The notes beneath the pieces are model-generated. The model did not search any database and was not told where the DNA came from. It saw only the letters and a list, made by a program, of their open reading frames with translations. A stretch of 60,194 nt of DNA, filler included, from Bipalium vagum (Eukaryota): the NCBI GenBank assembly GCA_037834085.1. It is 3 parts of 3 records of this genome, joined end to end, with 100 filler letters (N's around TTAATTAATTAA, not from the genome) between each part and the next. Parts side by side here need not be neighbours in the genome. Positions count along the whole stretch, not along the records: positions 15,861 to 42,568 come from JBBMKC010134027.1; 2 more parts are not named here. The stretch is one strand, 5' to 3'. Position 1 is the first letter of the stretch, and each line of letters opens with the position of its first letter. Positions 8,507 to 55,636 of the stretch are shown here, piece by piece. A program made the translations under genes and the position numbers.

Positions 8507-10160
8507 TGAGGAAAAAAGAAATAGAATTTAAATAAGTGTAAAAAAATTATTAAGTTTTCGTATGTTTTTCAAAAAAATCCTTTGATTTTTTAAATTATTA
8601 GAAAACTTACTAATAATAATATTTTTTAATATTATTATATTTAATTTAATGATTTATTAACATAAATATTTGTTTTTCGATATATCCGAAAATAAAGATT
8701 TTTGTGAAGTCTTTCATATCCAGTTATTTATGCCTGAGTTGCTTGTCAAATATTTTTTCTAAAATGTTTTTAAATTAATTAAATTAAAATTTTTAATGGG
8801 TTGAAGTAATATGAAAAAATTATTACTTAGGCGCTTAAAAATATTTTGTTGTTTAATGATTTTTTGATTTCTCATTACATTTTCTAATATTATTATTTAC
8901 CATAATTTTTGAAAAAATATTTCTGCAATATTTATAATATAAATAAAATATATAAATAAAAAATTAAAATTATTGTACACAATATAATCAATAAAATAAT
9001 CAATTTTTTATTAGAATTTTGTGCTTTTAAGTTATGTAATTAATTTAACTACATTGGATTTTACACATTTTATAAATTAATATTTATAAATTATTATTAG
9101 TTAATATATATTTAGCACTATTATAGTAAATATAGTTTAAGTGAACTATATTTAGTAGAAGATGAAGATAAATGAATAACAGGATAAGATTGTTCAGCTA
9201 TACTATTAAATATAAATTAATAAATAAATTAGGTTGGCAACTTATTCTAAGATGGAAATATTCTTAGTAAAAGACTTACTGAATATAAATATATTTCAAT
9301 TATTATTGATCCAGGTGAAAGGGATAATGAGGTTTATAGTATAAACTTTCTACTGATACATATACATGTTTTACTTTTGAAAACATTGGTTTTTATATAC
9401 AAAGAAGAAAATTAAAAATAAAGATAAATTTCTTTCTCTACGGCATCATGTTACAATCATATAAATGAGAAAAGATAAAAGTTCAGGAATCATCTTACAA
9501 CCGAGAAATTGTTAACAACTCTTATTAACCCCAATAAAGATTATGAAAAAATTTTGTATCATATTTCCACAAAAAATCTATAAGAAAACTATCAGAAAGA
9601 GACATAAAACTTAAGGTGACTTGACTGACCCTATTCTCTAAAATATTAAAATATCCGTCGATTTTCTTATTGTTTTTATATATTAACATCAAATGCCGAA
9701 TTTAGGAAATATTATTATTTTACAACAAATAAAAATAGATATATTAAATGTGGTTTATTAATTGACAATAAAATACCAAAGGATAATAATATTTCTTTCA
9801 GGATAACCATTATAAAGAACCTGTGGAAGTTGGTGTCAACAGTTCTTTCTAAATTAAAGCTTAAATATTTTGGTTTTCAGAGAAAATAATTTTTAAATTT
9901 AAATATTTTACAGTTTTATTCCAACCAATGATATATTCAACTAAAATTATTTTAGATCTCAATGGTCCTAGAACTTTAATAGAAATAGAAAGAAAAAAGA
10001 GTTCTCAACAATATTATTGGCGTCAACAAATCTTTGTATATTAAAAATCTCATGACAATGAAGTTCATTTTTGCAATCTTCGTATAACAATAATAATAAA
10101 ATATCTAATAGGTCTATTTTGTTTTTAAAAAAATAGAAAAAGGAAAATAAAATATTAATT

Positions 10161-10620
10161 AATAATTTATTCTTACTAAATGAATAAAAATAAAATAATA
10201 ATTTATTTTTAATAAATGAATGAAAATAAAATAATAATTTATTTTTAATAAATGAATGAAAATAAAATAATAATTTATTCTTAATAAATGAATAAAAATA
10301 AAATAATAATTTATTCTTAATAAATGAATAAAAATAAAATAATAATTTATTCTTAATAAATGAATGAAAATAAAATAATAATTTATTTTTAATAAATGAA
10401 TGAAAATAAAATAGTAATTTATTCTTAATAAATGAATAAAAATAAAATAATAATTTATTCTTAATAAATGAATGAAAATAAAATAGTAATTTATTCTTAA
10501 TAAATGAATAAAAATAAAATAATAATTTATTCTTAATAAATGAATAAAAAAATAGTAATTTATTCTTACTAAATGAATAAAAATAAAATAATAATTTATT
10601 CTTACTAAATGAATAAAAAT
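10161..10620. repeat. 36-bp minisatellite, about 13 copies
   Basis: Unit AATAATTTATTCTTAATAAATGAATAAAAATAAAAT repeated head-to-tail with few variants and no unique spacers. Confidence 0.92.
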
Positions 10621-11542: not shown

Positions 11543-13562
11543 ATGGAATCACATGAATATAATGTTGAAGATTCTTTGAGTAAGTATACTGACATTTTTT
11601 TTATTATCATCTAAAATTTCGGGAAAAATTTTTTGATAAAACCAAATGATGAATGTTCAACTTTTATAATTATTTGGTAATAAAGTCACTTCTTAAAAAT
11701 ATAATTGATTTAAGATTATTTTTTGCCAATAATTATCATCGGTTATTTATTAACCCTCACAATTGATTTTTTCTATTTCTACAGAGTTATTATTGAAAAT
11801 ATTTGAGCATTGTAGAGGAATAATTTTTGTAGACATTTATTCAAATATGATTCGTTTTAGATGAAATTGAATTTTTCTGTGGAGAAAGTGTTTTCAGATC
11901 ACATTATCAATGCCAAGAAGAAATCGGCCAAGGAGGATTTGGAACGGTTTTCAAAGCAATACGTTCATCGGATAATGTAACGGCCGTCGTGAAATTTATT
12001 TCCACAAAGAAAATCACGGAAATATACCATTGGAAAGTAACTTTCTTGTTGATAATATTGAAATATAATAATCAATTTTCATGTAGACCAAACAATTGAA
12101 TATACCTCTTGAAATTGCTCTATTGGCGAAATGTAAACATATTGAAGGTGTGATAAAACTTGTGGGATTTTACCAATCAGACGAAAAGCAAGGGTGGTAT
12201 TTAATAATGAATTTTATGGAGAAAAACGTGGACTTGTTTGATTATATCAGTCAAGCGAAATATTTATCAGAAGAAAAGGCCGCCTTCTATTTCAGACAAA
12301 TTGTAGAAATTCTTAAAGCATGTCACGAAGAAGGGGTTTTACATCGGGATATAAAAGATGAAAATATCCTTGTGGATGAAAGTACGGATTTGGTATATCT
12401 CATTGATTTCGGATCAGGCGCATTTCTCAAACCAGACTGCATTTACAGAGATTTTGATGGTAAGACATACAAAATTTTCGTTTGTAAAATTTAATGCAAT
12501 TATCCAATTAATTATGTAGAATTTTATATGATCATTGACGTTGTCGTTGTTTTTTTTTCACTGAATTCAATCGATCATATGACTGATAAAATGAAATAAA
12601 AATTTTTAATTTTTAACAATAATATCCATAATTGGACTAGTGGCTGAAATCTGAGGGAAAATTGTATGTAAAACGGGAATAAACTGTGTCAAGTTCATAT
12701 CCGAAAATTGGAATCTGAATTAGAAAAAAAATCTCAATGATCGACTAGAGATCGAGGTAATCATGGAAGATAAAATCGATAATTCTAATATTCTATAACC
12801 GATGATACATGAAATGAGTCATAATGCAAGACCAACATCGGTCAGAGTTCGCCTGCATTTATACACACACACGCACAAACACATAGACACATTGACATCA
12901 AATATTTCCTTTTAACCCATGTTTGGGTAAATTACGTTAATAATTTTATTTTGTTTAAAACAATGCAAAATCGTTCTAAGAATTGATATTAATAGATGAA
13001 AAATGTAATGATTGTCATCACATTAATGAAATGATATCATGTGTTTTATTTTTCAGGTACTCGAGTTTATAGTCCGCCAGAATGGATTAAAAACCATTGC
13101 TATAATGGATTTCAACTGGAAATTTGGTCGCTGGGCATATTGCTATTCGATATGGTTTGTGGTGATATACCTTTCAATGCCGATGAACAAATTCTAAATG
13201 GCAAACTCATATATCGACATTGTATCAGTAAAGATTGTCGTGATCTCATTGAACAGTGTTTACAACAAGATCCCGAACAGCGTATCAAATTGGACGAAAT
13301 AAGCTCCCATATTTGGATGGAAAAGCATCAACAAATGACCCAATCCAATTATCTTCACAATGTTCTAACGAGCTCCGTTTCCAATGGTCAACGTTGTTAT
13401 CATTTAACATCTGGATCTTCCTCGCTTTATTCTCCCGCTGAAACCATATCATCATCCTCAGGAGACGAGTCTATAGATGACAAATACAATCAAAACATTC
13501 CATCATATTTTTCCAAACCCCGGGAAGCAGCGAAATTTTATATATCAGAAAATGAAGATTAA
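11543..13562 (+). CDS. PIM: PIM-family serine/threonine kinase; exons 11543-11579, 11861-12036, 12087-12459, 13057-13562; 363 aa
   Basis: GT-AG introns join in frame (1092 nt in total). Motifs GQGGFGTV, AVVK, IPLEIALL, DLFDYI, HRDIKDENIL, DFGSG, DFDG|TRVYSPPEWI and WSLGILLFDMVCGDIPF are PIM signatures. Exon 1 is the least certain part. Confidence 0.92.
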
Positions 13563-15110: not shown

Positions 15111-15523
15111 GAGCTTTATGTTTAGATCTTAACGGAGAAGGTTGCTTTTAATTAAGTCAACTGAGAAAAAATTTAAATTTACAAAGTATATTTTTAATAA
15201 AATAATATGATTTTACAAAATCGTGATGATCGTCCTTGATAAATATTTAATTTGGGCTGTTATTATTATTAGGGGCTTTAATTAAGAAAAATTCTCTCTC
15301 TCTTAGGCTCAGAGATCCTTAATAAAGAAAAACAATTTATTTCACCGCCCTACTTAGCGTGTGAAATAAGAACAGAAAAAAGAAAAATTAAAGAAATGGG
15401 AGATTAAAAAATTACTTGATCCTTAAATCCTGGGTTGAGTATTTATTTACTTATTAAGAACAAACTTTGTTTTGTCTAACAAAACAAGTTCGCTTTAATT
15501 TATTGGGTTAAATTATATAAATA

Positions 15524-15760
15524 CAGTATCTGCAAAAAGTATTCGTACGATCACGAAAAACATGTTATATAAATTAACTTTGATTTCTTTCAGCAATAAA
15601 AGCATTTTAATGGGTCGTAGGTCAAAAGAATACTCGATTGACTTCAGAAATGCAATTCTGCAATTAAGAAATGAGGGAAATAACATTGGTCGGATCTCCT
15701 CATTGCTTCATTGTCCGAAGTCAACTGTTCAATCATTGTTGAATAAATATTTCCGTGATG
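15524..15760 (+). mobile_element. Tc1-like element 5' end, cut by the spacer
   Basis: TA|CAGTATCTGCAAAAAGTATTCGTAC TIR-like start. ATG at 15610 reads MGRRSKEYSIDFRNAILQLRNEG...CPKSTVQSLLNKY, a paired-like HTH. Confidence 0.75.
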
Positions 15761-15860
15761 NNNNNNNNNNNNNNNNNNNNNNNNNNNNNNNNNNNNNNNN
15801 NNNNTTAATTAATTAANNNNNNNNNNNNNNNNNNNNNNNNNNNNNNNNNNNNNNNNNNNN
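15761..15860. other. artificial 100-nt contig-joining spacer with six-frame stops
   Basis: 44 N + TTAATTAATTAA + 44 N, identical in design to 42569-42668. Confidence 0.93.
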
Positions 15861-22651: not shown

Positions 22652-25202
22652 CTGGATGATCCGGAAAGTATTTTTCGTTTTTTAAAAAGAAATTCAAAAG
22701 TTTAGAATTTTTAAAATACATTTATTTAATCCAAATATAGCTGCCATTGTTATTTACGACCTCTTTCCATCTATTTGGAAAAGAAAAAAAAATCCGAAGT
22801 TCCAAAAATCGTTTTTCCTGGTATTTAAAAAAACACTTCCAAGTGAAATTTTACATCTTCCACATTACTGAAACTCTGATCCCTGAGTGAGTTCTATAAT
22901 GATCTTAACACATGATAATCTGATGGTGCAAGGTCTTGGGAGTACGTAGATGCTGCAAATTTTCCCAGTCAATCTTCTACAGCTTCGTCTTGGTGATCAT
23001 TGGGATCTGGCATTGTCATGATGGAATACAACACCTTTTCTATTAGGTGTAGGCAAAGTTTAAGTTCATTTTTAAAAAACATTAAATGTTATTAAAAAGG
23101 TAATAAATTTATTTTTATACGATAGGGATTTAAAAAATCAGTCATCAACATAATATCTATTATTGGAAATCACATTTTGCCATCTATCAGGTAATTGTCG
23201 AATCTCGAACAATAAAAAGATATTATTTTTGACCCAAGATAATTCTTGAAAAAATCTCGTATCTGTTCAGTATTTTTGAAACGATATCCGGCTAATTCAT
23301 ATTGCATTTAGCGATACAGATGAAAATCTGTAGAAGCAAGGTCTGGAGAATTAGCCAAGTGAGGAAGAACTTCCCAGCCTAACTGTAAAATTGTTTCTTG
23401 ATTATGTTTCGCTACATGCGGTCTGGCATTGTCATGTAGCAGGACAATCTTATGCGATCCTTGCCCGAAAAAAGGTCTTTTTCTCTATTTGTTTTGCCAA
23501 ATGCAGCAATTGTTTGCTATTTAACGTTCCGCATTAATGGTTTCACCAGTTTGGAGGAGGTCACGATGAATGGGTCCTTTCTCATCCCACCAGATGTAAA
23601 GGAGTACTTTTTTATTGTTTTGACAACTGAAGGAGCTGGCATTCCAGGGTCCACCCACGAATGTTTGTGTTTTGGATTATTGTAATTAATCCATTTTTCA
23701 TCTCCACTGACGATTCTTCATAAAAAGTTTTTCTTTATTTGTCAAGCAATAAGAGATGCGCATGTTGTCAATCGGCATAAAATATTGCTTTCGGAAAGTT
23801 CGTGCGGAATCTACTTTCCAACCTTCTGAATTTTTCCCATGTCGTGTAACCGTCTTCCGACAGTTCTTTGATCAACGGAAAGTTGTTCAGTGAGTTCTGC
23901 TTGCGTCTGTGCTGTATTTTCATTCAGTAGCTCTTCCAATTTGTCTGATTCCAATATCTGTGGAGCACCACTTTTGGGTCGATTGGTAACATCAAAATTT
24001 CTGTCTTTGAATAGACGATACCAGTATTTACATGTACCGCGGGAAACGGCATTATTACCAAGAACGATACATATTGATTTAAATGCCTGGGACGCATTTT
24101 TGCTTTGATAAAATTCATATCTTATTATATTCATTATTCATATCTCATTTTGAAGACTGATATTTTTGTTTTTATACAAAAATTAAGTATAAAATTAATA
24201 TATTTAAAAAATTTAATATATTGATTACCGATGTAAACTTTCACGGTAGTTATTTGATAATATTTTCATTAGTAAAACAACAATGAAAAAATGGTTTAAG
24301 ACTTATGCCTATACCTAATAATTGGCAAATGAATTCGCTTTTCTACAATAGAAGCATGTATTTTTTTAGTTTGTTACAAAAAGCCTCGGAATATATTGTT
24401 TCATTGCTCGGAAGTAGCTCATAATAGAGAAACCATGCCAATCCCACAATAATGAAAACATTAGCTTTTTGGGATGTAATCCCGCCTCTGATATCGGTAA
24501 TGGTGGTTCACTCCTTTTAGCTAGGATCTTTTTCTTGTAACATTACAATATCGGATCCACTTTTCATCTCCTGTTATCAACTATTTCAAAATTGGCTGAA
24601 GCTTATTCCTTTTTAGCAATGATTCACAGATTTTCATGCGGTCAATTAAATGACATTCTGAGAGTGTTTGTGTAATCCAACAATTCAGGTTACTCACAAA
24701 GCATATCCTCCTTAGGTGGTTATTTGTAGTTGTTTTGGAGACTGAAAGTTTCTCACTAATTTCCTGACATGTCAACCCAGAGTTTGATATTACCAGCTCT
24801 CTCAAAATATCATCAACAATGACATTGGATCTACCTGACCGGGTAGTGTTTTTTATAAATGTTTCACCAGAATGAAATTTCTGGAACCAATAATGCACTT
24901 CTCATTCAGATACTACACATTCCCCATAAGCATTACATTTGTAATGAGCTACAACAGTAGGCTTTTTTCCTTTCGAAAGAAGTAGTGCATTTTGCATATC
25001 AGATGCTGCTTTGTGATGTCCATTATTATGTATATAAATAATCAATTTTTAAGAAAAATTACTTGATTAAATTTCATTAATTTATAACCTTACTTATATT
25101 CTTTCAAAATATTCGCACAGAAATTAAATGACGCTCTTATTATTTAAAAAAACAATAAAATTCTAATGATCAAAAAATGAAAAAACTTTCCGGATCACCC
25201 AA
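22652..25202 (-). mobile_element. outer mariner element (about 1.27 kb after removing the nested insert), decayed
   Basis: TIRs CTGGATGATCCGGAAAGT / ACTTTCCGGATCACCCAA|TA. ATG at 25023. Motifs WFQKFHSG, ITGDEKWI, and HHDNAR after the insertion point. Confidence 0.85.
23043..24318 (-). mobile_element. inner mariner element (1276 bp) nested in the outer mariner
   Basis: TA|TTAGGTGTAGGCA...TGCCTATACCTAA|TA. Transposase motifs [32 protein letters not shown], and [11 protein letters not shown]. Several stops. Confidence 0.92.
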
Positions 25203-27258: not shown

Positions 27259-28878
27259 CAGTAGCTCTCAAAAGTTAGTTGACACTAAAAATATAAGTGT
27301 TTTTATGAAGTTTCTTTTGTATTATGACTACCCAAAAAATATATAAATGTGTTTTCGTAAAGGCTAATCAAATCAATCAAACGAAAATTGTGTTGAAATT
27401 GATATTAAATAAATGAAATATTCAAGAAAATATTCAATATTAAGAGTTCATATATTAGTTGTCATTGACAATGTAACATGAAAATTGAGAAACCTTAAAT
27501 AATATATTAAACGAATTTTTAAAAATTTATTATTAATACAAGTGATCCAAACTAATATTTAGTAGCATAACCATTGGAAGCGATAACAGCTGAACATCTG
27601 TGAGGCATAGAGTCAACAAGTTTAATCAATTTTAATAAAGGAATTTTAATCCAACTTTCCTCTAAATTTCTAAAGAAATCTTATTTATTGGATATATTTT
27701 TAACTCGGATGGTACAATCAAGCTCCTCCAATAAATAGTCAATCGGATTAAGGTCCGGACTCTGACTAGGTCACTTCATAACACGGATTTTGTTGCGTTC
27801 TAGCGTTTGTTTAATAACGTTGGATGAGTGTTTGGGGTCGTTATCCCTCTGAAATATCCACCTTTCTTTCATGGTTTCATGTGCAAATAGAATCATTGTA
27901 TCCTTAATTATGGTATCATATATTTGCATGTTCATGATGTCGTTTATTTGAATAAGAGGTCCGACTCTATCTCTGGAAAACAACTCCACACCATGACATT
28001 TCCTCCACCGTGTTTAATAGTCGGAACCTGATATCTTACATTAAATCTGTGGTTAACAGATCGACGAACATACAAAATACCATCACTAGATAGCAAATTC
28101 AATTTACTTTCGTCACTCAAGAGCATTTTAGACCAATCTTTAATTGTCCAATCTTTATGAAGGCGAGCAAATTTCAATCGGGTCATTCGATTTTTCTTCG
28201 ATATAAAAGGTTTCATGCTGGGACGTCTTGCAAATAGTCCAACAGATTGTAGACGTCTTTTTACAGTAGAAACACTGATTTTATTTGATGCGTTGGAATG
28301 ACTTTGATTAATTTCTGTGTCAATATCGACAGCAGTTTTTAGTGAATCTGCTTTTGAGGAACAAATAATGATGCGATCTTGATGAGCAGTTGTTTTCCTT
28401 GGTCTTCTAGATATTGGTGCATTAAAAATATTTCCAGTTCTGTTAAATTTGTTGACCCAGTTGCTGATTACCTGTCGCTTAAGCCCAAAATCGCGCGAAA
28501 CACTTGCTTGTGTTTTTCCTCTTTTAACTGCCCTAACAACTCGTTCCTTAATATCATTACTATAATTTTTGCTCTCACTATGATTGAAACTAAATAGTTT
28601 TAGACATTATTTTTAGAAAATCGTTTATATTCTTACTATAAATTGATTTTAATTGATTATAAATAAAATGAAAATTAATTTTTGAGTGCTTGTTTTTAAT
28701 GGTTTATGCTTTTTTATTATTTAATATTTTATAAATTCAAAATATTTTTTAGAGTTCATTTCTTTGCATATGTAGGAAGATTTTTAATAACAAAATTTTA
28801 ACATAATCATCTAGTAACAGCTAAATTTACTTATGAAAATTTAAAATTCGGGTGTCAACTGACTTTTGAGCGCTATTG
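27259..28878 (-). mobile_element. full-length Tc1-like element (1620 bp), transposase disrupted
   Basis: TA|CAGTAGCTCTCAAAAGTTAGTTGACAC...GTGTCAACTGACTTTTGAGCGCTATTG|TA. Motifs LSDESK, KHGGGNVMVW, FQRDNDPKH, PSQSPDLNPI. A frameshift and a stop are present. Confidence 0.93.
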
Positions 28879-40096: not shown

Positions 40097-40629
40097 GTAA
40101 GTTTCATTTTGGTCTCTGTTTCTAAATAATAATATATTATAATCAATAACGGAATTTTGCTGGATAATTTTGATTGAATTCTTTCGATAAAAATCGTATG
40201 TAAATAGAAAAACATTATTTAAAGAAAAAATATATTAGATAAAGAAAAAAATGACGTGAAATTTCTTTTCGTTACTAAAATCAATGTCTCACGATGATCA
40301 ATATTTGCCTGAAATTTTCGTTACGCAGGAAACATTGAAAGTACGAAATAAAATAAATAGATGAAAATTAACATAAATATAACATTAAAATAAATACAAT
40401 ATACAAAATATTATTTAACTATTTCGAAAATGTGAAAATTAATTTTGTCAAGGACTCCATTTCTCCGCTTTTATATAAATGATTTTTTAAAATATTAAAA
40501 TACCAGGTCAACGCAAGTCATTTCGCTTTTTAATAATTTATATTCAACCAATTAATTAATTGTTTAAATATATCTAAAAAAATATTTTTTTGCTGATTTT
40601 ATAAAATAAGTTCAAATAAGGCTTAAATA

Positions 40630-41218
40630 GGTTCTTTTTTGGAATAGGAACGCACTTACTGACAGCCAATAGTAAGTGCGTTCCTATTGAACGACTATTT
40701 ATAGATGTTGAAGAACGGATCGTGAAATCAAATCAATGAAATCAGCTTATTTTATTTCAAATTTCTGTTGGAGAAATAAAACTTACAATGCAAAAATTAT
40801 TTCAAGTTCCTTCAATCATAAAACGTTGGCTTCCCGTTCAATTTAATATATATCAGCTTTTAAGTAATTGAATAATGATTTTAAAAATGTCATTAACATT
40901 GAAAGGCCAATAAATCGTTTATTTGAAAAGAATCATTAATCTGATAAAAGTTTTTGATTCATAGTAAAAAACGCTTTCAAAGATATCACTATGGAATAAT
41001 AACAATATGCTTTTATTGTTTGATTTCTCCATCTTGTCTAAGTTTTCAGAATTGAGATACTGCGTAAATTATATAAAATGAAAACTCACGTTTCTTTCTG
41101 AAATTTGACTTGCATTTCAGAACCGACGTCTAAAATGTTACATCTATAAATAGTCGTCCAATAGGAACGTACTTACTGACAGCCAATAGTAAGTGCGTTC
41201 CTATTCCAAAAAAGAACC
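40630..41218. mobile_element. 589-bp non-autonomous element with 79-bp TIRs carrying internal palindromes
   Basis: 40630-40708 and 41140-41218 are reverse complements with 2 mismatches, except for a 10-nt spacer GACAGCCAAT that is in direct orientation. Confidence 0.85.
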
Positions 41219-42497
41219 GAATGCTTTAATATCAGAAAATATCAGAGATGATTTACCAGCTTCAAAATCAGAAAGTTTGATCTATAAGACGCTTTTACAA
41301 CCTTGCTACAACCTAATGAAACAATAACCGTGAATGTGTATTGTATTCAGTTGTAGAGTTTAAAATGTGAAATTGAAAAAGTTCCCGTCTTTGGTAAACA
41401 AAATTGGAGTCATTATACATTAGGATTATGTACGATTATCATATATACTCAAAAATACATTCCAGAAGATTCAATGTAAACCAACGCCTTTAGTAATTTT
41501 CTGTGCAAGTTTCTAGTAGTAATCGTGATTATAAAAAAATCAGCATTAATTGACAAACTTTTGTACAGGACAGATTATCACTTATGAAAATTACGGAGGG
41601 AATTGTACTCGAAATGGGCCAAAGATCGTATAGGTTAGAATGTAGAAGATTGAGGATTAGTGATCTGATCAATTATGTTACGAAAGAGGCTTTCCAATGA
41701 ATATTGTTGTAAGTTTTTTATGACAGGAAAAGTGAAACCAGAAAGGAAAAACTAATATAAAGATGCTTTGATCGAAAAATAATATTATACGAATAGATTA
41801 AAATAAACATTATGAAATAGGATAGAATAAAATAATGTAAAATCCAACAAATCCAGGAAAATTAATTAATTGTGTAATTTAGTGAAATTGTTAAAGATGA
41901 CTTATAATGTAAATTTCTAGGAAAATGGTGAATATAATAACAGTGGATAAAAATTTCGAGGTATCATTTGTAATTAGTTTTGATCATTATATACATATGT
42001 ATATATTAATAATTTTATCTGTTATTTTTATATCTAAAAAGTTTGAAATATATTTTCTTGAAAACTTTGTATTAATAAACTAAAAAATCTATTGAAAGAA
42101 TAAAAACAATCACCATAACATTTTCGTCGCGCTTAATTCATTTATTACCAGTCTGAAAAGATCTGTTTGGTAATTCTTCTGGCTCAAAAGCGTATTCGAA
42201 GAATGGAATAGACTTTTCGAAATCAATGCTGAATGACATTTGGTATTATTTATTAATTCTTTTCCATCCATTGGGAATAAATTTACTTTCAGTAATAAAA
42301 ATATTGGTAACGGAAATCGCAAATTAACACTTTAAAAATTATTTTGGACTTACATAAATTAATAATTGAAACAAATTCATTGTTTAATACAGAATTTGTA
42401 TTGGGACTCATTAAAAAATTAACTTTGGCATGAATATTTTTTGGAAAATGTTGACAAAAATATTTGCTTAAATAACTGAATGGAAAAAATTTTCACG

Positions 42498-42568: not shown

Positions 42569-42668
42569 NNNNNNNNNNNNNNNNNNNNNNNNNNNNNNNN
42601 NNNNNNNNNNNNTTAATTAATTAANNNNNNNNNNNNNNNNNNNNNNNNNNNNNNNNNNNNNNNNNNNN
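42569..42668. other. artificial 100-nt contig-joining spacer with six-frame stops
   Basis: 44 N + TTAATTAATTAA + 44 N. Confidence 0.93.
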
Positions 42669-42944
42669 TAGTATCTGATTAAACGTTCATTCTGACTATA
42701 TTTGATTTGATTAAACATTACATTTAATTCATTGTAATTATTTTTCTGTTGTGTTTTGATCAGATAGTGTAAGGGTTGTGTAACATTTCAGACATTAGTT
42801 GTAATCCCAGACTTACTTATCTTTTGTAGTCCCGCGTATTTTGTATTTTTGTGGTATAAATACAAGTGTTGCTTTACTGATTGTTTTATTGCACCACCTA
42901 AGATTTGGAGTCAGGTGTAAATTTGATACCCTAAATATTGAACA
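42669..42944 (+). mobile_element. 3' part of an LTR-like repeat (same family as 48082 and 49677), cut by the spacer
   Basis: The end ...TTGCACCACCTAAGATTTGGAGTCAGGTGTAAATTTGATACCCTAAATATTGAACA matches the reverse complement of 48082-48180 and 49677-49780. Confidence 0.65.
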
Positions 42945-44816
42945 ATTATTATTATTATTATTATTGTTGTTGTTGTTTTTATATTACTACTATTATTAAA
43001 TTATTATTATTAGTAGTAGTATGAGTAATAATAATACTAGAATATGTATTTTTAATAATTTTCATTATTATTATTATCTATAATGAAATATTTCATTAAA
43101 ATTTACGAGAATCTCAAATAGCTTAAAGCTGATCTTTTACCAATTAGTACCTCTTTCATTGTGTCAAAAATAATTTCCAGATCAAAGAATCAGCGAGGGA
43201 CTGCTTTCTTTAGTCGGGAACAATTTAGAAATCAGTTAATCATTACTATGGAGGTAATTCAATGAGACATTTCAGCACTATCGGTTGTATTATAGAAATT
43301 CAGTTAAAATTGAGCTAATTAAAAGAGTTTATTGGAATTTTATTTTATTTTCAGAAAAATTAAAAATTCTAATTATTTTTTTTTCGTCAAAAAAAGAGAT
43401 CAGTTCAATTTTTTTACAATATAAAATCAATATATTAAATAATATACATGTATTTCTTGTTCTGCAATAAAATTTTTGCAAAGTTTGTTTTTTGTTGTAA
43501 AAAATCCATATAAAATATTTATTAATTCTAACGTTTTCAATTAACTAATTGATTTCTAATTTATCTATGGGAATCTCGACAATTATTTAATTTTTCCATA
43601 AAACAGTTGAAAATAATTAGATGCCTTAAATATAATTTATTTCTCGATTTTTTGTCATATTAAAACAACATTATTTATGGGAACCATTGAGTAATTTCTG
43701 TATTAATTAAAAATCGATCAATTTATCATTTTCATGAATATTAAGTGGTTTGTTTTAATTATAAGTAAAAATAAAGATTTATAAAAATAGAATAAAAAGA
43801 GTAATTATTTAATAAATAAAATTGATTTATTTTTCTTTATTCCTTTATTTATCATTTATTTTGAAATTAAATATAAAAAAAATTACAAAAAAAAATAAAA
43901 ATAATATTATATATCTAATAAAAATAAATTCCGAAAATATCGATTTGTGTATTTTAGTTTAGAGAAAAAAATCAATTAAAGAAAATTTGAAAATGAGAAC
44001 ATTAAAACAAAATAACGTTTTTTCTGGGTAAAAAATAGAGAAGTACTTTTAAAAAGCACTTCAAAAATTTTCCAGCTAATTTAATTGTTATTCGTTAATA
44101 AAAATTGGAAAATAAAAAAGACTTGAACGATAAAGAATAGAAAACTGATTAAAATCAAAAACGTTTACCGTCTCTAATATCCATTAATCAACTGTATAAT
44201 GGCAAGAGGACACCTTTATCTGAAAATGATTAATGGTCGTAGCTTGATTAGATCTAATAAATTATACTAAACTATTAATAATGGTCAAGATGCAGCTGAG
44301 TCGTCCGCTTCACTTTATGGATCTCTATCAAAGATCAAGAGTCAGAATTGGAGATAAGTTTCCATTTGTTTTGTTTTATTCCTTGCCAAATTTGTTAAAA
44401 TAGCAGCAATTCAATTTTGACATTGACTTTTCCTGATAAAATTTATCAGGATACTGAGCTGAAATATTTTTTATTTTCATAAACTTTCATTATGATTTTA
44501 AATAACTTTATTTTATGTCAAAAAATTTTAATAATTTATTAATATTATTTGTAATTTTCAATGTACTTACTTAAATTGTTTATGTAGGAGAATTTAATGA
44601 GAATAAACTCAATAGGTTTAATACTACTAAAATAAAAAATAAATTATTGTGTATATTTATGGAAAGTGAACATTTTTTAATAGCTGTAATAAAGAAAAAT
44701 TATTCATTTGTTTAAATAAACTATTGGAATATGTATTGTGTATGGATTTTTCAAAAATAATCTATAAAAACATTCCTGATATCTTTAGATATATCTTATT
44801 TTTATTCTTTTATAGA

Positions 44817-47520: not shown

Positions 47521-48081
47521 TTAATTTTCAACTAACAATAAGCATCATTGATTTTGTTGAGATAGAATTAGATTTGACAAACTGTTGTGAAATGATGACC
47601 TGTCAGATGGAACTTTTCAGCTGTGACTTCAAAATGATAATGAAACAGATAATTCAGAGATAATTTGTAAATCATATATGTTTGGTGAATATTGTTTTGA
47701 TAAACTTGAAGATTTCGTTATTGCTTTCTCAACCTCCTCCGTTGTGAATCATTTTATTCCTAGCCAATATACAATTTATTTATCTCCTTTGGGATATCTC
47801 CAAAATATTTTTATTTGTCTACTGCATAGGGAAATTGAAATGAATATTGTCAGAAAATAATTATTTTATAAACCCAAAAGCTCGGAAGAACATAGGGTGG
47901 GTTTATGTTTCCGTGCGTAAATTATATTAATTTTAATAATATATTTCAGTTGACTGTACGAGTACTGATATATTAAAATTTGTATAAAATTGAAATTATT
48001 AATAAAAAAGTATTTGGGTAAAATCTGCACGAATCCCACATTTTTTCAGTTTTATATATGTGACTCAAGGATATATCCCTT

Positions 48082-48958
48082 TGTTCAATATTTAGTATAT
48101 CAAATTTACTCTAAGTCCAACTCTTAGATAGTGCAAAATAAAGACAATCAGCAGAGAAATCATCTGTATTTATATCACAAAAGGTCACACAAAATCACAA
48201 TTTAACAAAAAATTCAAAATCAATAAAACCATCACCAAAAAAATAATGTCTCAAAGGTCTTGGATAATATTAGTCAATAAAATCAATCAATTCAAACAAA
48301 ATGTCTATTAAAGTAAACGGTTAATTAAAACAATTAATAAATAAAACAGAAATCAAATCATTTTCAATTGAAAATAAAGAACGTTAAAGAAAAATTTAAA
48401 AAATTACAGAATTTGTTTAAGTTTCCCGAACTATCATGTGAGCCTTTACAGTTGCTCAGAGATAGCCATCTGGTAGGGAACTTAAATATAATCCCAAAGA
48501 AAAGGAAAATATTAATATACATGTGATAATTTTCGTATTGTTTTAAAAATGATATCTGCTTTTCGAACTTCACACAATAAGCTTCTTCACAATAATAATC
48601 TGCGTAATAATTCAAACTGGAATCTTCCTCTCGAACTGTAAACAATAAGTTTCTTCAGAAGCAATAATAAAAATGACTTTTTAAAACGCTTTTTTTTGGT
48701 GAAATATTGGGGAAATACTTCTCCTTATATACTGATTCTAAACTATTCCATTTGGAGACGAGCACCATGCAAATTCCCAAATTTGCTCCTTGATGATTAT
48801 TTTTGGGGATCTAATTGCTTCGTTTTCCGCATGTTAACCAAAATTTTTCTCTAATTGTCTTTTATAAATCCTCAACAATAAATTAATTATTATTAATTAG
48901 ATCAGGGTCCACAATTAGGGACTGATTTAAGTTTTAGTACCTAAAAAGGTTTTTGACA
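48082..48958 (-). mobile_element. probable solo LTR
   Basis: On the minus strand it runs TGTC...AACA, with TATATAAGGAG near 48721-48731. It shares blocks with 49677-50477. The 5' boundary is uncertain and no clean TSD is seen. Confidence 0.55.
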
Positions 48959-49169
48959 TTCCCAATTAAGAATACTGGTCTACGTTTGAAAAGTATAAAA
49001 GGCACAGAAATGCTCACTAGATTGCCACAAAAATAGAGCTAGCAAAAATTTTGTTTGATTAATTGGAATGTCAGAAGAAGTTAACAGTTTGGGAACTATG
49101 AAATTTATTGTCAGAAACAAAATCAATTTGTAAAATTTATTATGATTATGCAAATTTTTATGCAACAGT

Positions 49170-49569: not shown

Positions 49570-49676
49570 TAGTAATATGAAGCCTAACAATATCTTTGAT
49601 TAATAACTTTCTTCTATAGTTCTCACTCTTATTTCTTTCCATCCAAAACTTCTCTAAGATTTTCAATGCATCTAAT

Positions 49677-50477
49677 TGTTCACTAACTAGTGTATCAAAC
49701 GTTAAACCTGACTCCAACTCTTAGGTGGTGCAAAAATAATAACAACCAGTAAAGCAAAACTTGTATTTATAACACAAACTTCACACTAAATCACAGTGAT
49801 AACAATTACACAAAATCGTCAAATCAAGGATCACAATAAGATCTGAAATGTCTGCAATTGTCTTTATCAATCAAGCACAAGATGTTTATAAAATATAACA
49901 AAATAAACACTTAAATGATTCAATAGTCAAATTATGATAATAATTAATTAATAATTATATTAATAATAAAGTAAACTGTTAAGCAAGAAGAAGATAAAAA
50001 AAACGAGCCTACAGGTTAGCTTCGTTTAAGCTTCCCGGTCTATTAGCTGAGCCTTTACAGTTGCTCAGAAATAGCCCTCTGGTGGGGAACTCAAACACAA
50101 TCCCAGGGTTTGGTACATTAAAAATATACTTGGAATTCTCTGATAATTTCCTACGAATAGGGATTGTCTTTTCCGAATAACAATTGTCTTCTCTGAATAG
50201 CGATTGTCTTCTCCGATTAACGATTGTCTTCTCCGAATAGCGATTGTCTTCTTCGAATAATGATTGTTGTCGTCTGCTTGTTGATGGCAAATTTATGGAG
50301 AAACCCTTCTCCTTATATAGTATTTTGGTCGACGACTAATCAGTCGTAGACCAATTTTATTAATGGGAAATGTCAATTCCCCTTTTAGGATCATTTATCC
50401 TAGATCGGTCTCTCCTTGCTGACCCTGATCTAATCTTGGCAATTTAGGTTCGCCATTGTCAAGATTAGACCCCAACA
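49677..50477 (-). mobile_element. probable solo LTR with TGTT...AACA termini
   Basis: Terminal 4-bp inverted repeat, TATATAAGGAG near 50310-50320, and the block GAGCCTTTACAGTTGCTCAGA shared with 48440-48460. Confidence 0.6.
50161..50270. repeat. 20-bp tandem repeat (about 5.5 copies) inside the LTR
   Basis: Unit CGATTGTCTTCTCCGAATAG with variants. Confidence 0.85.
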
Positions 50478-51530
50478 AAAAAATAATTTTTTGCCTTTTT
50501 TTCCATTTAATTAACTTTTGTACTTTTTAATTAGCTAAAATTATTATTTAATTATTATTCTTAGTATTATTTTTATGATTATTATTATTTGTGTTCTTTT
50601 GGGCCCAATTTCATAATAATAACACTATTTAAATTAAGTCTTAGAATTAATTTCATTAATATATTTTAATAAAATTTTATTTTTGAGGTCTTTAGTTTGG
50701 TGTATTTTGATACATAAATTTAATAATTATTTGTGAAAACAATTATTTCATTATTTTATGATCATCCTGAAATCACAGCAAAACAGATTTTAATTAATTA
50801 TTTGTTTATCTGGGTCAATATCATTAATGGAGTTTTAAATAAAACGAAGTTATCTGTACACTTATTGATAATAAAATCGTGTTTCTCTCTGCAATTAACT
50901 TAAAAATATTATTTATAATTGTTATAAAAACGTAAAGATATACTACTTACTAATATAAGTCAGTTTGATAATTGATATCTTAAGTTTTGATATTTAATAA
51001 TAAATTGATTAAAGGACACCGGAACAACTATTATTGAAGGTCTAATCTGTCTTGAGAATTTTATTATTATTTTTTTTAAATAGTATAATAAATGTATTTA
51101 ATTATGTATAAAATTTATATACATATTATTGTACATTATATATAAAATTTTTAAAAAATTATTTTAGATTTTAATGATATTCTCTTTACGTTCCTTCGCA
51201 TTAGATTCTCCAATGAAATCTCAAGTCTTTCGTAAATTAAGCGATTTTTACTTCTGCTACCTTTACTGAGCCTTGAATAATAATTAAAAAATTGTGAGAT
51301 TTAATGAAATGCTTTTGAATAACATAGTTGTCACAAAGGCATCCTATTCTGCAAACTTATTATATGATACAAAAATACAGTTTAAGTCCTGAAGTACTTA
51401 ATTTTGGTTTTTCTATGGAAAGACTCACACACCTCTTCATCTTAACCTTTTATTTTACAATAAGATACAAGCATACAATTAAATTTTCTAATAGGAAAAC
51501 AATGTTTTTATCAAAATTGAATTTTACAAG

Positions 51531-51619
51531 AGTTATGTTATTTATTATTGATTTGTTTGAATAAATACTTTTCACCTTCACGTGTTATATTTCCTACTGT
51601 TATGAAGAACGAATTAACT
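51531..51619 (+). repeat. 5' LTR (89 bp)
   Basis: AGTTA...TAACT ends, contains AATAAA, and has 5 mismatches to the 3' LTR. Confidence 0.9.
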
Positions 51620-51636
51620 GGCGACCACACCGGAAA
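51619..51636 (+). promoter_or_regulatory. primer-binding site, probably tRNA-Arg
   Basis: TGGCGACCAC overlaps the last LTR base. It is complementary to a tRNA 3' end ...GTGGTCGCCA. Confidence 0.6.
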
Positions 51637-54600
51637 TGACAATGTTGTCAAAAGGAGACAAGACAGGAAAATAATTATGGATGCTTTGCCGAGTAAAGCC
51701 CGAGATTTAATAAACTTTAATGTTCGCCGATTCAATGAACGAAGTTCAGATGATGGTTCAAAGATGTCTCAATGGAGTATTCGATCTCTTGCTGTCCGAT
51801 GAGGCTGCAATTTAGTGGCGAAATTTCAAGACAGAGACTACTACAAAAGTGGAAGCAAACCCTGGTTTCAAGAGACTTTTATCATTAAAAAGTCGATTTC
51901 TGAACTGATAATGGAACTTGGTGAGGTGAAGCAAAATAGTGATGAAAGGTTTGCAACCTTTGAAATCTACTGGTCAAGGTCCTGGACTCCGGGTTATCCA
52001 GAGATGAAATTTTAGCTGATTTCTTAACAAAAAGAGCCAAGAGCACGGGTCTTAAAGAAGCTATAATACCAATGCCGAAAAATGAAGTTAAGGATATTAG
52101 CGATCTGGCCAAGTCATATAAGAATAGAGAACAAGCTAACGAGATGGTTCAAGTCAGCGCAGTTATGCAGAATCAAAGAGTACAACTAAATACAAATTTT
52201 TTCGACCGGGACCATTCAGAGATGACTACTGAGCCGAAAGATCGAGTCTTAGATCAGGAATGAATCCTTTTCATATTGTTGGGAAATCTTACAGAGCGAA
52301 CCAACGACAAGAGAATCCAAGAATCTTGAATGAACATCGAGGCACGCATCACAGTCGAGTAGATTTCCATAGAAGAGCACCACCTAGGTATTCAATGAAA
52401 CACATCCCGAAACGGGTGTACAACTCATCATGTGGTTTACCACCATCTAACGACGAACAGCTGAGGTTGGGTCAATGTTATTGTTGCGGGTCAAACGATC
52501 ATTTGCGCTCTCATTTCCACTGCAGAATAGATACCTGATTTGTGACCAGCACAGACATCAATTTGTTAATTTCAGCTCCCACTCATCAACGCCGATCTGT
52601 GATGTGTATTCACGAAGAAGCAGATGAGATAATACAAAACATTAGCAATCAGGAGGAATTGGACGAAAAAATCCATGTGGATCCCATAGCTTACATCTCG
52701 TCTGTGGGATTGACTTAATGAACATTTTAGGAAATCGAAATGTGGATGATGTAGAAATTTTTAAGACAGATGATGAAAGACAGTGGAGTTGGATGCAGAT
52801 AGAAGGAAGAAAGTTGAAAATGTTGTAGGATTTGGGAGCGTCGTTTACGGTTATGAGTGAATTTTACTGGAGACAGATGGGTAGCCCTAAGTTGAGTAAC
52901 ATCAATGTTCTCTTAAGTGGTGTATTCTCAGTTAGAAGCAAGCGGAGATTGTGGTCATATGGAGATTGCAACCAGATTTTTTTGGTGGCGTTAATTTTAT
53001 GAAGGAGTTTGGAATCCAGCTGTTCCAAATTAATAACATTGAATCAACAGATCTACAAAGGAAATTTTTAAGTTTCGATAGAATTAATTATGCAATGGAG
53101 ATTTTTAAAGATGTGTTCAGTGTGGGATTGTGCAACATGATAAGACGGTATTGAAATGTTTTCATGGCCTCAACCTTTGACATTGACCACACGAAGTTAG
53201 TTCAACATAACATTGACATAACAGGCACACCGATCTTACAACATCCAAGAAGGCACCCTATGCATCTGGAAGCAAAGTTGGACGTGATGGTATCCAAATT
53301 GATGGCTGCTGGGGTCGTGTCCAACTGCAAGAGCCAATGGAACTCACCATTGGTGGTAGTGAGCAAAAATGACAACTCGGTTCGGATGTTTGTAGATTTT
53401 ATAAGAGTCAATGCCATTACAGAGAAGTATACTTTTCCAATTCCTGATATGCAGATGTTACTCGATTTCTTGGCTGGGTGAAAATATTTTTCGTCAATCG
53501 ATCTGGGTCAAGCCTATTATCAAGTAAACCTATCAGAAAAGTGTCGCTTGATAACGACGTTTAGCACCAAACAAGATCAATTCTGTTTCAATCGCATGCC
53601 TTTTGGGTTGGCAACGGAACCGGCGACATTTCAAAAGCTGATGCACGAACTATTGGATGGTCTGATTTTTAATGGTGTTCTGGTATATCTCGATGATATA
53701 CTCCCATACAGCCTCTCGGAAAAAAAGCATGTCGATGTATTAGAGAAGTGTTAAGAAGGTATATCGAATGCAGGTTTAAAATTGAATCCCAACAAGTGCA
53801 AGTACCTCGAGAAAGAGCTTGTTTTTCTTGGTCACACCCTGTGTTCGGACGGCATTCGCACCAACTAAAAGAAGATAGAGGTAATATTGAGGACCAAACC
53901 ACCTGGTTGTGTGTCACATTTGCTTTGTGTCTTTCCTAGGATTGACAAACTATTATCGTCGTTTCATCGATAAGTATGCCGAAGTCGCAGCTCCCTCATA
54001 TGCGGCTAAAGGAGACAAAGGTCTGCAGTGGACGGACAAATGTCAAGAAAGTTTACAAAATCTCTTTGAAAGACTGTGCAAAGCCCCTATCTTGGATTTC
54101 CCGCGGAAGGACCGTACTTTCATGTTGGATACTGACGCTAGTTTTGGGGCTATCGGTGCCGTGTTAAGTCAGATCAAAGAAGATGGATCGGAGACCGTGA
54201 TTGCTTACGGTTCCAGGCATTTGTCGACTCACGAATTGGGTTATTGCGTCACAAGGAAGGAATTATTAGCTCTGTACGAATTTGTTTTGCATTTCAAGCA
54301 ATACCTATATGGCAAACGGTTCAGTGTAATTAAAACTGTCCACGATATACTGACTACATTTCTAAAGGAGGTTGTTTAGAAAGAAAATGGTCTGAACTAC
54401 ATCAGTATCAACGCAACGCAGCAGAGCTCTACAAAATTCTAACCGTTTGAAATTGTATTTTGATATAGAGTTAACTTATACTCTGGAAGGAATGGAACTG
54501 TCGTTCCAGAAACAGAGATCACGGCTCAGATGAAGAAAAATTTAGATTTTGCTGCTGACAAAATGAGTGTTTTTGAGAAGGACAAGAGAGTTAATCGAGA

Positions 54601-54802
54601 ATTCAGAATTGGTGAAGAAGTGTTAGTGAGAAGGGAACCGCAGAACAGAAAGAAAAATGAATTCTTGAATGAAAATGAAAAAGGCCCCTATAAGATAACC
54701 AAATTTATATCGCCACACTAGATCGAACTTAGGGTCCAGATGGAACAAAATTATGGAGAATCGAGTGATTGAAGAAATACCAATAATCTTATACAACAGC
54801 GG

Positions 54803-54891
54803 AGTTATGTTAATTATTGTTGATTTGTTTGAATAAATACTTTTCACCTTAACGTGTTATATTTTATACTGTTATGAAGAACGAATTAACT
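54803..54891 (+). repeat. 3' LTR (89 bp)
   Basis: Direct repeat of 51531-51619. Confidence 0.9.
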
Positions 54892-54949: not shown

Positions 54950-55330
54950 ACTATACTGTTCGTATTCTTTAACTCCATTATTGGAATAAAGGATTCAGTA
55001 GCAGATCTGCTGCAGTTTAAATATGTGAAGTTGAAGGAGACAAATTTTTCAGTAAAAGCGCAGCTATCAAATGGTTTACAAGATTTTATTCGGATAATAC
55101 GGATCTTAATGGTGAGTCAAGTTCTGGAAGACCCTCAACAGTTGATTACCAAGAAATTATGTATGCTTTGGGTAAAAATCCATGTACCAGTGTCAGAAGT
55201 CCAGATGAAGTTCAAATTCCGAAATCTTCAGTGCACTGCAAACTTCTGTCTCATGGCAAGAGAAATAGGAGATACAAAGTTGTACCGCATGATCTAAATC
55301 CCGAACAAGAGGAAAAACGTTTGCAAATCC
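54950..55330 (+). pseudogene. mariner transposase N-terminal relic
   Basis: WFTRFYSDNTDLNGESSSGRPSTVD, in a frame not shown in the ORF track. Confidence 0.6.
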
Positions 55331-55636
55331 TAAAATAATTACTTTTTTGAAAATTCTTTTTGTGATTCTTATTATAAAAATTTTGTAATATGGGATTATC
55401 AAATTAAAGATTAGTACAATTATTTTTATATTATTTATTATTAATTATTAAATTAACAGTATAAAATTAGCAAGAAAATAAATAAAGAATTTGTACATAA
55501 ATTAAATATAGAAATAAGAAGTTACTTTAAATAGAAATTAATGTAAATAAAATAATATGAATTTATAAAAATAGAAATTAAATGTTGATAAAAATAATTA
55601 TAGTCCAGAAAATTTATATATATCCTAACAAGAATT

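Follow-up and report, generated by a model that had tools for sequence, protein, structure and literature searches.

Architecture of the element and its surroundings

The window, i.e., the whole analysed stretch of 60,194 nucleotides from Bipalium vagum, contains a non-coding repeat element that begins at position 40630 and ends at 41221 or 41222, spanning 592-593 bp. An adenylate-kinase-like exon has its splice donor about 530 bp before the element, and the DNA around the element is AT-rich and non-coding, so that a position within an intron is probable. The exon itself gave a weak pointer to adenylate-kinase-like clusters (Atlas), and we assume that it belongs to AK7.

Several other features accompany the element in the window. 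A 36-bp tandem array (13 copies, 93% identical) occupies positions 10146-10620 and is followed by a two-exon protein kinase gene (12087-13562; Pfam Pkinase), presumably PIM-like. Fragments of Tc1/mariner transposases are found at 15499-15759, 23811-24137 and 27944-28606 (Pfam HTH_SB, HTH_48 and HTH_Tnp_Tc3_2), and similar Tc1/mariner-type frames at 24581-24901 and 55021-55338. A second, older dispersed repeat family is represented by direct and inverted copies at 42848-42948, 48081-48496, 49676-50105, 48896-48984 and 50345-50434 (68-85% identity), together with a 20-bp tandem array at 50154-50267. A decayed LTR retrotransposon extends over 51530-54891, where two 90-bp direct repeats (51530-51619 and 54802-54891; 94% identical) surround broken reverse transcriptase and RNase H frames. 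Finally, the segments 15761-15860 and 42569-42668, each composed of 44 N, a 12-nt stop-codon linker and another 44 N, are assembly linkers and not biology.

Comparison of the window with itself revealed two inverted arms of 79 nt each, 40630-40708 and 41140-41218, which we treat as terminal inverted repeats (TIRs). On the plus strand, the left TIR consists of an outer part of 13 bp starting with GG (40630-40642), a perfect hairpin (40643-40688) and an inner part of 20 bp (40689-40708). The hairpin is built of an 18-nt arm (40643-40660), a 10-nt loop, GACAGCCAAT (40661-40670), and the second 18-nt arm (40671-40688). The inverted-repeat comparison delimits the same parts of the right TIR, on the same strand and in reverse order: an inner part of 20 bp (41140-41159), a hairpin with one mismatch (41160-41205; arm 41160-41177, loop 41178-41187, arm 41188-41205) and an outer part of 13 bp ending with CC (41206-41218). 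Such hairpins are far from what chance would provide, as the 18-mer arm has four matches in the window against 0.05 expected, while about 0.001 perfect 18-bp stems are expected in 60 kb.

What makes these TIRs unusual is the direction of the loop. When the two ends are compared as inverted repeats, two mismatches fall outside the loop, and 8 of the 10 loop positions disagree; the latter mismatches arise because the loop is direct. Read in the same direction, the left and right loops are identical at all 10 positions, and the two 46-nt hairpin units as wholes are direct repeats with 98% identity, 517 bp apart. The architecture described in an earlier, sequence-only reading, that of inverted termini each carrying a loxP/FRT-like site with a direct spacer, is thus borne out, as 79-nt arms containing 18 + 10 + 18 hairpins. 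A short likeness of the hairpin arm to what we take to be the FRT arm faces outward and was not counted.

Other copies of the element were surveyed in the contigs of a single sequencing run, X1, which holds this region and may be the source of the window. Both mismatches between the TIRs turned out to be private to the window copy: other contigs have G in place of A at 40690 (1398 of 1441 depth) and C in place of T at 41170 (2597 of 2774 depth), so that the TIR of the family is perfect outside the loop.

Between the TIRs lies an AT-rich non-coding interior (40709-41139), and the longest stop-to-stop frame overlapping the element has 52 codons. Towards its right border, the interior contains, on the plus strand, a small subterminal hairpin (41096-41122; 9-bp arms, 9-nt loop) and a right-end-specific subterminal stretch (41114-41139), which is common to copies with otherwise different interiors. 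Inside this stretch, AGAACCGA (41119-41126) is a direct copy of the terminal 8-mer at 41213-41220. Each TIR also carries what we take to be CCAAT and TATA-like motifs (40666-40704 and 41144-41187), the stretch within the left inner part being TATA-like in the same assumed sense; these motifs may have a promoter role. An Rfam search of the element returned six rows, all of them microRNA-type hairpins far below the gathering score, and we rejected such an identity.

No second copy of the element was found in the window. A pattern scan of metagenomes gave no matches, and a looser pattern gave two, which we attribute to chance: in both, the match is confined to the 10 outer bases of the arm and the surrounding DNA is richer in GC, with bacterial genes around one of them. 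Pattern scans of viral contigs and of plasmids gave no matches either. The element family may already be catalogued in Repbase or Dfam.

Termini and target-site duplication

The sequence-only reading saw no clean target-site duplication (TSD) and offered TA/GA or AAT/AAT as candidates. A duplication of 9-10 bp is nevertheless present, though degraded; it escapes notice unless the right end is taken to extend 4 nt beyond the TIR. In a search of the flanks over different end offsets, the best repeat was formed by GCTTAAATA at 40621-40629 and GCTTTAATA at 41223-41231, both on the plus strand and identical at eight of nine positions. The same register permits a duplication of 10-12 bp with two mismatches (for 10 bp, starting at 40620 on the left, 8/10 are identical). 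With the boundaries fixed, 170 of 200,000 random flank pairs matched as well as this one; when all offsets of 0-6 and lengths of 2-15 were allowed, 44 of 1,500 were as good. Overall, the chance of such a match is 0.1-3%, for a duplication that is imperfect and seen at one locus only, this being the only copy with both flanks.

The 9-bp reading implies that the right end runs 3-4 nt beyond the TIR (41219-41222, plus strand; GAA or GAAT), an extension that has no counterpart on the left and is also found in other copies. The contigs of X1 independently support such an end. Their depth falls from 2087 at 41215-41219 to 243 at 41220-41224 and to 21 beyond; five contigs end at 41221, one of the listed pieces aligned to the right end (piece 7, see below) also reaches 41221, and the loose-end consensus of nine contigs reads GAAA after the tip of the right TIR. 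Against a universal extension, four contigs stop at 41218 and four at 41215, possibly because their ends are of left type or diverged. The other left-type copy begins at 40630, exactly as in the window, and the base before it matches neither end.

Other registers were considered as well. Judged by the mutation load of the window copy, the 9-bp TSD fits best (P = 0.20), and a 13-bp TSD placed right at the tips of the TIRs (P = 0.004) is unlikely. A TA duplication was rejected in the flank-offset search, and AAT/AAT was outscored by the 9-bp repeat (2.5 against 6.9). Duplications of 9-10 bp arise when a DDE transposase makes a staggered cut, and we therefore infer that the element was inserted through a staggered double-strand cut. 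The AAT/AAT reading would have pointed to the PHIS group (Pangu, Harbinger and ISL2EU), described with TSDs of 2-3 bp, ANT in Pangu, and with a Pangu TIR of 11-40 bp (PMC4482050); besides its low score, the TIR of the present element is 79 bp long and the nine-contig consensus at the right end is not ANT.

Direction of the loop in other copies

The 150-bp right end of the element is matched by 116 contigs of X1. Their summed depth reaches 5741, while the unique flank has 21; this figure is not to be read as copy number. Such a multi-copy family, with no coding frame longer than 52 codons in the element, agrees with the earlier suggestion of a non-autonomous family member. One single-copy contig connects a left end, at 40706, with the greater part of a right hairpin, from 41174, through 23 other letters and is likely a very short, internally deleted family member.

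The alignment of the right end to X1 comprised 119 pieces, eight of which were listed and are numbered here 1-8. Pieces 1-5 start at 41114-41132, within the right-specific interior, and span the whole loop without gaps, differing from the window at 7, 6, 9, 8 and 7 positions, respectively. An inverted loop alone would cost eight differences or two gaps, so pieces 1, 2 and 5, with fewer differences in total, must have a direct loop. Piece 3 was placed on the right end in the whole-element alignment, with a depth of 30.4, above the 1% floor for listing a variant; its change at 41177 is listed, none of the inversion-specific changes (41181 and 41184-41187) is, and its loop is therefore direct too. 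The loop of piece 4 is probably direct, being inverted only if this piece shares the private base at 41170. Piece 6 is a left-type copy that matches 40630-40742 with six differences and no gap, which gives it the left-type loop direction. Pieces 7 and 8 come without interior and count for neither direction. Thus, among the eight listed pieces, five are certain (four right-type and one left-type), one is probable and none speaks against a side-specific direct loop. If direction were random, such a tally would arise with a probability of 0.5^5 = 0.03, which is an upper bound on the surprise, as the copies share descent.

The surveyed copies differ from the window by 6-10%, and in at least pieces 1 and 3 the upstream sequence did not align to the window interior, even when the entire element served as reference. 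Direct loops in copies so diverged and with different interiors indicate that the arrangement is old and extends across subfamilies. No weight was given to the apparent scarcity of variants among the outer 31 bp, since end clipping and depth thresholds bias it.

These observations bear first on the suspicion that the direct loop is a one-off inversion in the window copy or a misassembly of two near-identical ends. It is true that the two listed X1 contigs carrying the window copy's own flanks (0 differences) end before the loops, so that the loops of this copy are not directly bridged. However, four other right-type contigs (pieces 1, 2, 3 and 5) have a direct loop for certain, which largely refutes such an accident and leaves us giving it hardly any credence; the direct spacer recurs and is not peculiar to one copy.

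Only slightly more credible, and still very improbable, is recurrent flip/flop of the loop through hairpin-primed replication, either of the parvovirus type, as raised by the sequence-only reading, or of the poxvirus type. Both loop isoforms are indeed abundant among the ends, as seen in the change 41178 G>A (1125 of 4050 depth, 30 contigs; summed contig depth cannot give an isoform ratio) and in five loose ends of left type at 41205. Yet flip/flop predicts either direction at either end, whereas direction is side-specific in the five certain copies and the probable one, with none against. Moreover, the hairpins lie inside the ends, the element has a TSD, and the scan of viral contigs returned no match.

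A third possibility is that the 46-bp units are tyrosine-recombinase sites of the loxP/FRT type which, being direct, would excise the interior as a circle. In favour of it are the arm-spacer-arm geometry, the identical directional spacers and the family-wide direct orientation, and in these inverted arms around an asymmetric, directly oriented spacer the element does resemble Crypton, loxP and FRT sites. The dimensions do not agree: the arms are 18 bp and the spacer 10 bp long, against arms of 11-13 bp and a spacer of 6-8 bp given for tyrosine-recombinase sites in PMC3212892. Cryptons, which lack TIRs according to the same source, have at most terminal direct repeats of 4-6 bp, while the present element has 79-bp TIRs and a 9-10-bp duplication. 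The position of the units is equally awkward, as they lie 13 bp inside the left end and 16-17 bp inside the right one. If the units recombined with each other, a 72-bp footprint would remain, and such an event could not carry the outer ends to new AT-rich sites. The duplication left by the staggered cut lies outside the units. Among the 12 listed joints in X1, there was no clean skip of 517 bp, although this is a weak test, since the repeat and the collapsed contigs make placement ambiguous; joints 40668-41198, 40671-41184 and 40689-41173, which might have passed for solo footprints, were dropped for the same ambiguity, each being found in one contig. Overall, we consider the recombinase reading quite improbable.

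Probable origin of the direct loop and relation to known systems

The duplication of 9-10 bp, the GG start, the TIR of about 80 bp and the mixed interiors together suggest a non-autonomous element of the cut-and-paste type, with Mutator (MULE) as its closest likeness. The explanation that we consider, on balance, probable is that this is a non-coding member of a multi-copy inverted-repeat family, moved in trans by a MULE-kind DDE transposase, in which the loops are direct as a result of a template switch in a founder. The scenario starts from a multi-copy element with 79-bp TIRs, hairpins, direct loops and no coding frame; followed inward, the loop has one direction at left-type ends and the opposite one at right-type ends in diverged copies. 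Insertion would proceed by a staggered double-strand cut, as suggested by the duplication at one site and its modest statistics. The transposase supplied in trans would bind the outer TIR and the arms of the palindrome and ignore the sequence of the loop. A single event of inter-strand template switching, with the perfect 18-bp arms as partners, would then have turned one loop around. Such a flip would be costless, as the arms remain unchanged, and all derivatives would have inherited it; one founder event, invisible to an arm-binding protein, leads to the fixed, side-specific pattern.

Published observations offer precedents for the separate parts of this scenario. Inter-strand template switching between inverted repeats is described as inverting the spacer and leaving the arms intact (PMC5453318), and loop-only inversions have been reported in rRNA genes and in a microRNA as well (PMC8794818). 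In the MULE Muta1, the differences between the left and right TIRs are reported to be confined to the linkers between the bound repeats, and a palindromic pattern to help transposase binding (PMC5499845).

The neutral origin nevertheless carries a condition: the last homogenisation of the TIR, perfect apart from the loop, has to be older than the inversion, and no later correction may have occurred. Selection on loop direction would account for the family-wide pattern just as well. We therefore weighed a second reading of the same cut-and-paste family, in which the ends are not equivalent and the same loop is required on the same strand at both of them. The extruded hairpins might be read on one strand, or the loop might be a directional promoter element; the offset of 3-4 nt at the right end would reflect the same asymmetric recognition. 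Three asymmetries do coincide, namely the direction of the loop, the extension found only on the right, and the right-only subterminal stretch with its copy of the terminal 8-mer; the loops are fully identical, and the pattern persists across diverged subfamilies. End hairpins also act as recognition signals in single-strand (HUH) transposons, according to the Replitron preprint (bioRxiv 2022.12.15.520654). On the other hand, inheritance from one founder explains all three asymmetries without selection, and a G>A change within the loop at 41182 (364 of 3778 depth, eight contigs) shows some tolerance of change. As for the HUH analogy, Helitrons and Helentrons are described as making no TSD (PMC4067079) and Replitron-1 as making variable ones (bioRxiv 2022.12.15.520654). 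We thus regard a functional loop direction as possible but rather unlikely.

A bolder version of a functional loop, which we find less plausible still, is a eukaryotic TIR transposon family with built-in end polarity, in which both ends would expose an identical loop on one and the same strand and cutting at the right end would be offset by 3-4 nt. The hairpins, extruded as single strands, would be read by the transposase or by a second enzyme of an autonomous partner, telling the donor end from the acceptor end, so that IS200/IS605-like recognition would be combined with 9-bp staggered integration.

The mobilising enzyme may also be other than a MULE transposase. With the neutral account of the loop left as it is, the element might have been moved by Merlin (IS1595-type) or another DDE transposase making long TSDs. 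Merlin elements are described with TIRs of 24-462 bp, terminal GG, TSDs of 8-9 bp and commonly imperfect TIRs, and a Schmidtea family is known (PMC8101967). The present element is alike in its GG start, in the length of its TIR and, if the 9-bp reading holds, in its TSD. However, although the TIR tips are GG and CC, the right terminus apparently lies 3-4 nt further out and would then not be CC, so that terminal GG would hold on one side only, and the scanned window frames contain no IS1595-type transposase. We consider Merlin or a similar enzyme unlikely. For MULE, Merlin and tyrosine-recombinase families alike, no match was found in 25 of the 33 window frames of 90 or more amino acids (9, 15 and one shorter frame). 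The ends and the TSD make the element a candidate member of Mutator/MULE, and "Mutator-like" is the label that we have chosen for it.

Taken as a whole, the locus holds a family-wide structural oddity in what is likely an ordinary cut-and-paste element. If our preferred explanation of a Mutator-like element with an inherited flipped loop is true, the TIR is not a true mirror, and a flipped loop has become fixed throughout the family of an ordinary non-autonomous DNA transposon. Such a family would represent a natural experiment that tells which bases of the TIR are ignored by a transposase, and would call for care in annotation based on TIRs. If, instead, loop direction is required, the element would carry a directional end signal of a kind that we did not find for any eukaryotic TIR element in the literature searched; among the papers listed by full-text searches of a library with few subscription titles, none has a title or opening of its abstract that describes a TIR family with direct hairpin loops.

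Among known systems, the non-autonomous derivatives of Helentrons (HINE/DINE-1) share with the present element palindromic subterminal inverted repeats at both ends and a lack of coding capacity, but they are described with sub-TIRs of 12-15 bp, insertion at TT and no TSD (PMC4067079), unlike the 79-bp TIRs and 9-10-bp duplication found here. Replitrons, with the short direct ends reported for them (bioRxiv 2022.12.15.520654), differ in the same way from an element with long TIRs.

Non-autonomous MULEs, such as Muta1NA of Aedes and MuDR_SM of Schmidtea, come closest, having TSDs of 8-11 bp, a GG start, TIRs of tens of bp, a palindromic TIR motif, and common ends around heterogeneous interiors. 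Phantom elements, MULEs with inset sub-TIRs, may be a further parallel. MULE TIRs are described as 14-500 bp long and their TSDs as 8-11 bp immediately outside them (PMC6446971); the 79-bp TIR and the duplication of 9 bp (or 10 bp) at one locus fall within these ranges, but while the duplication adjoins the TIR on the left, a gap of 3-4 nt separates it from the TIR on the right. Seven MULE families are tabulated for Schmidtea, with TIRs of 20-130 bp and, in one family, a 9-bp TSD. The non-autonomous MULEs of Aedes are reported to have the TIR and subterminal sequence in common around heterogeneous interiors (PMC5225508), as do pieces 1-5 here. What sets the present element apart from MULEs, in addition to its extended right end, is the 46-bp hairpin within the TIR, with a loop that is direct between the two ends; the tandem subterminal repeats described for Muta1 are also absent. 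With regard to the loop itself, the closest parallel is template-switch inversion (the Ripley model; Loytynoja and Goldman 2017), in which a spacer is likewise inverted between perfect inverted repeats and the arms stay intact. Whereas the template switches described there are single mutations in genomes and rRNA genes, here the inversion would be fixed in one TIR of a whole transposon family.
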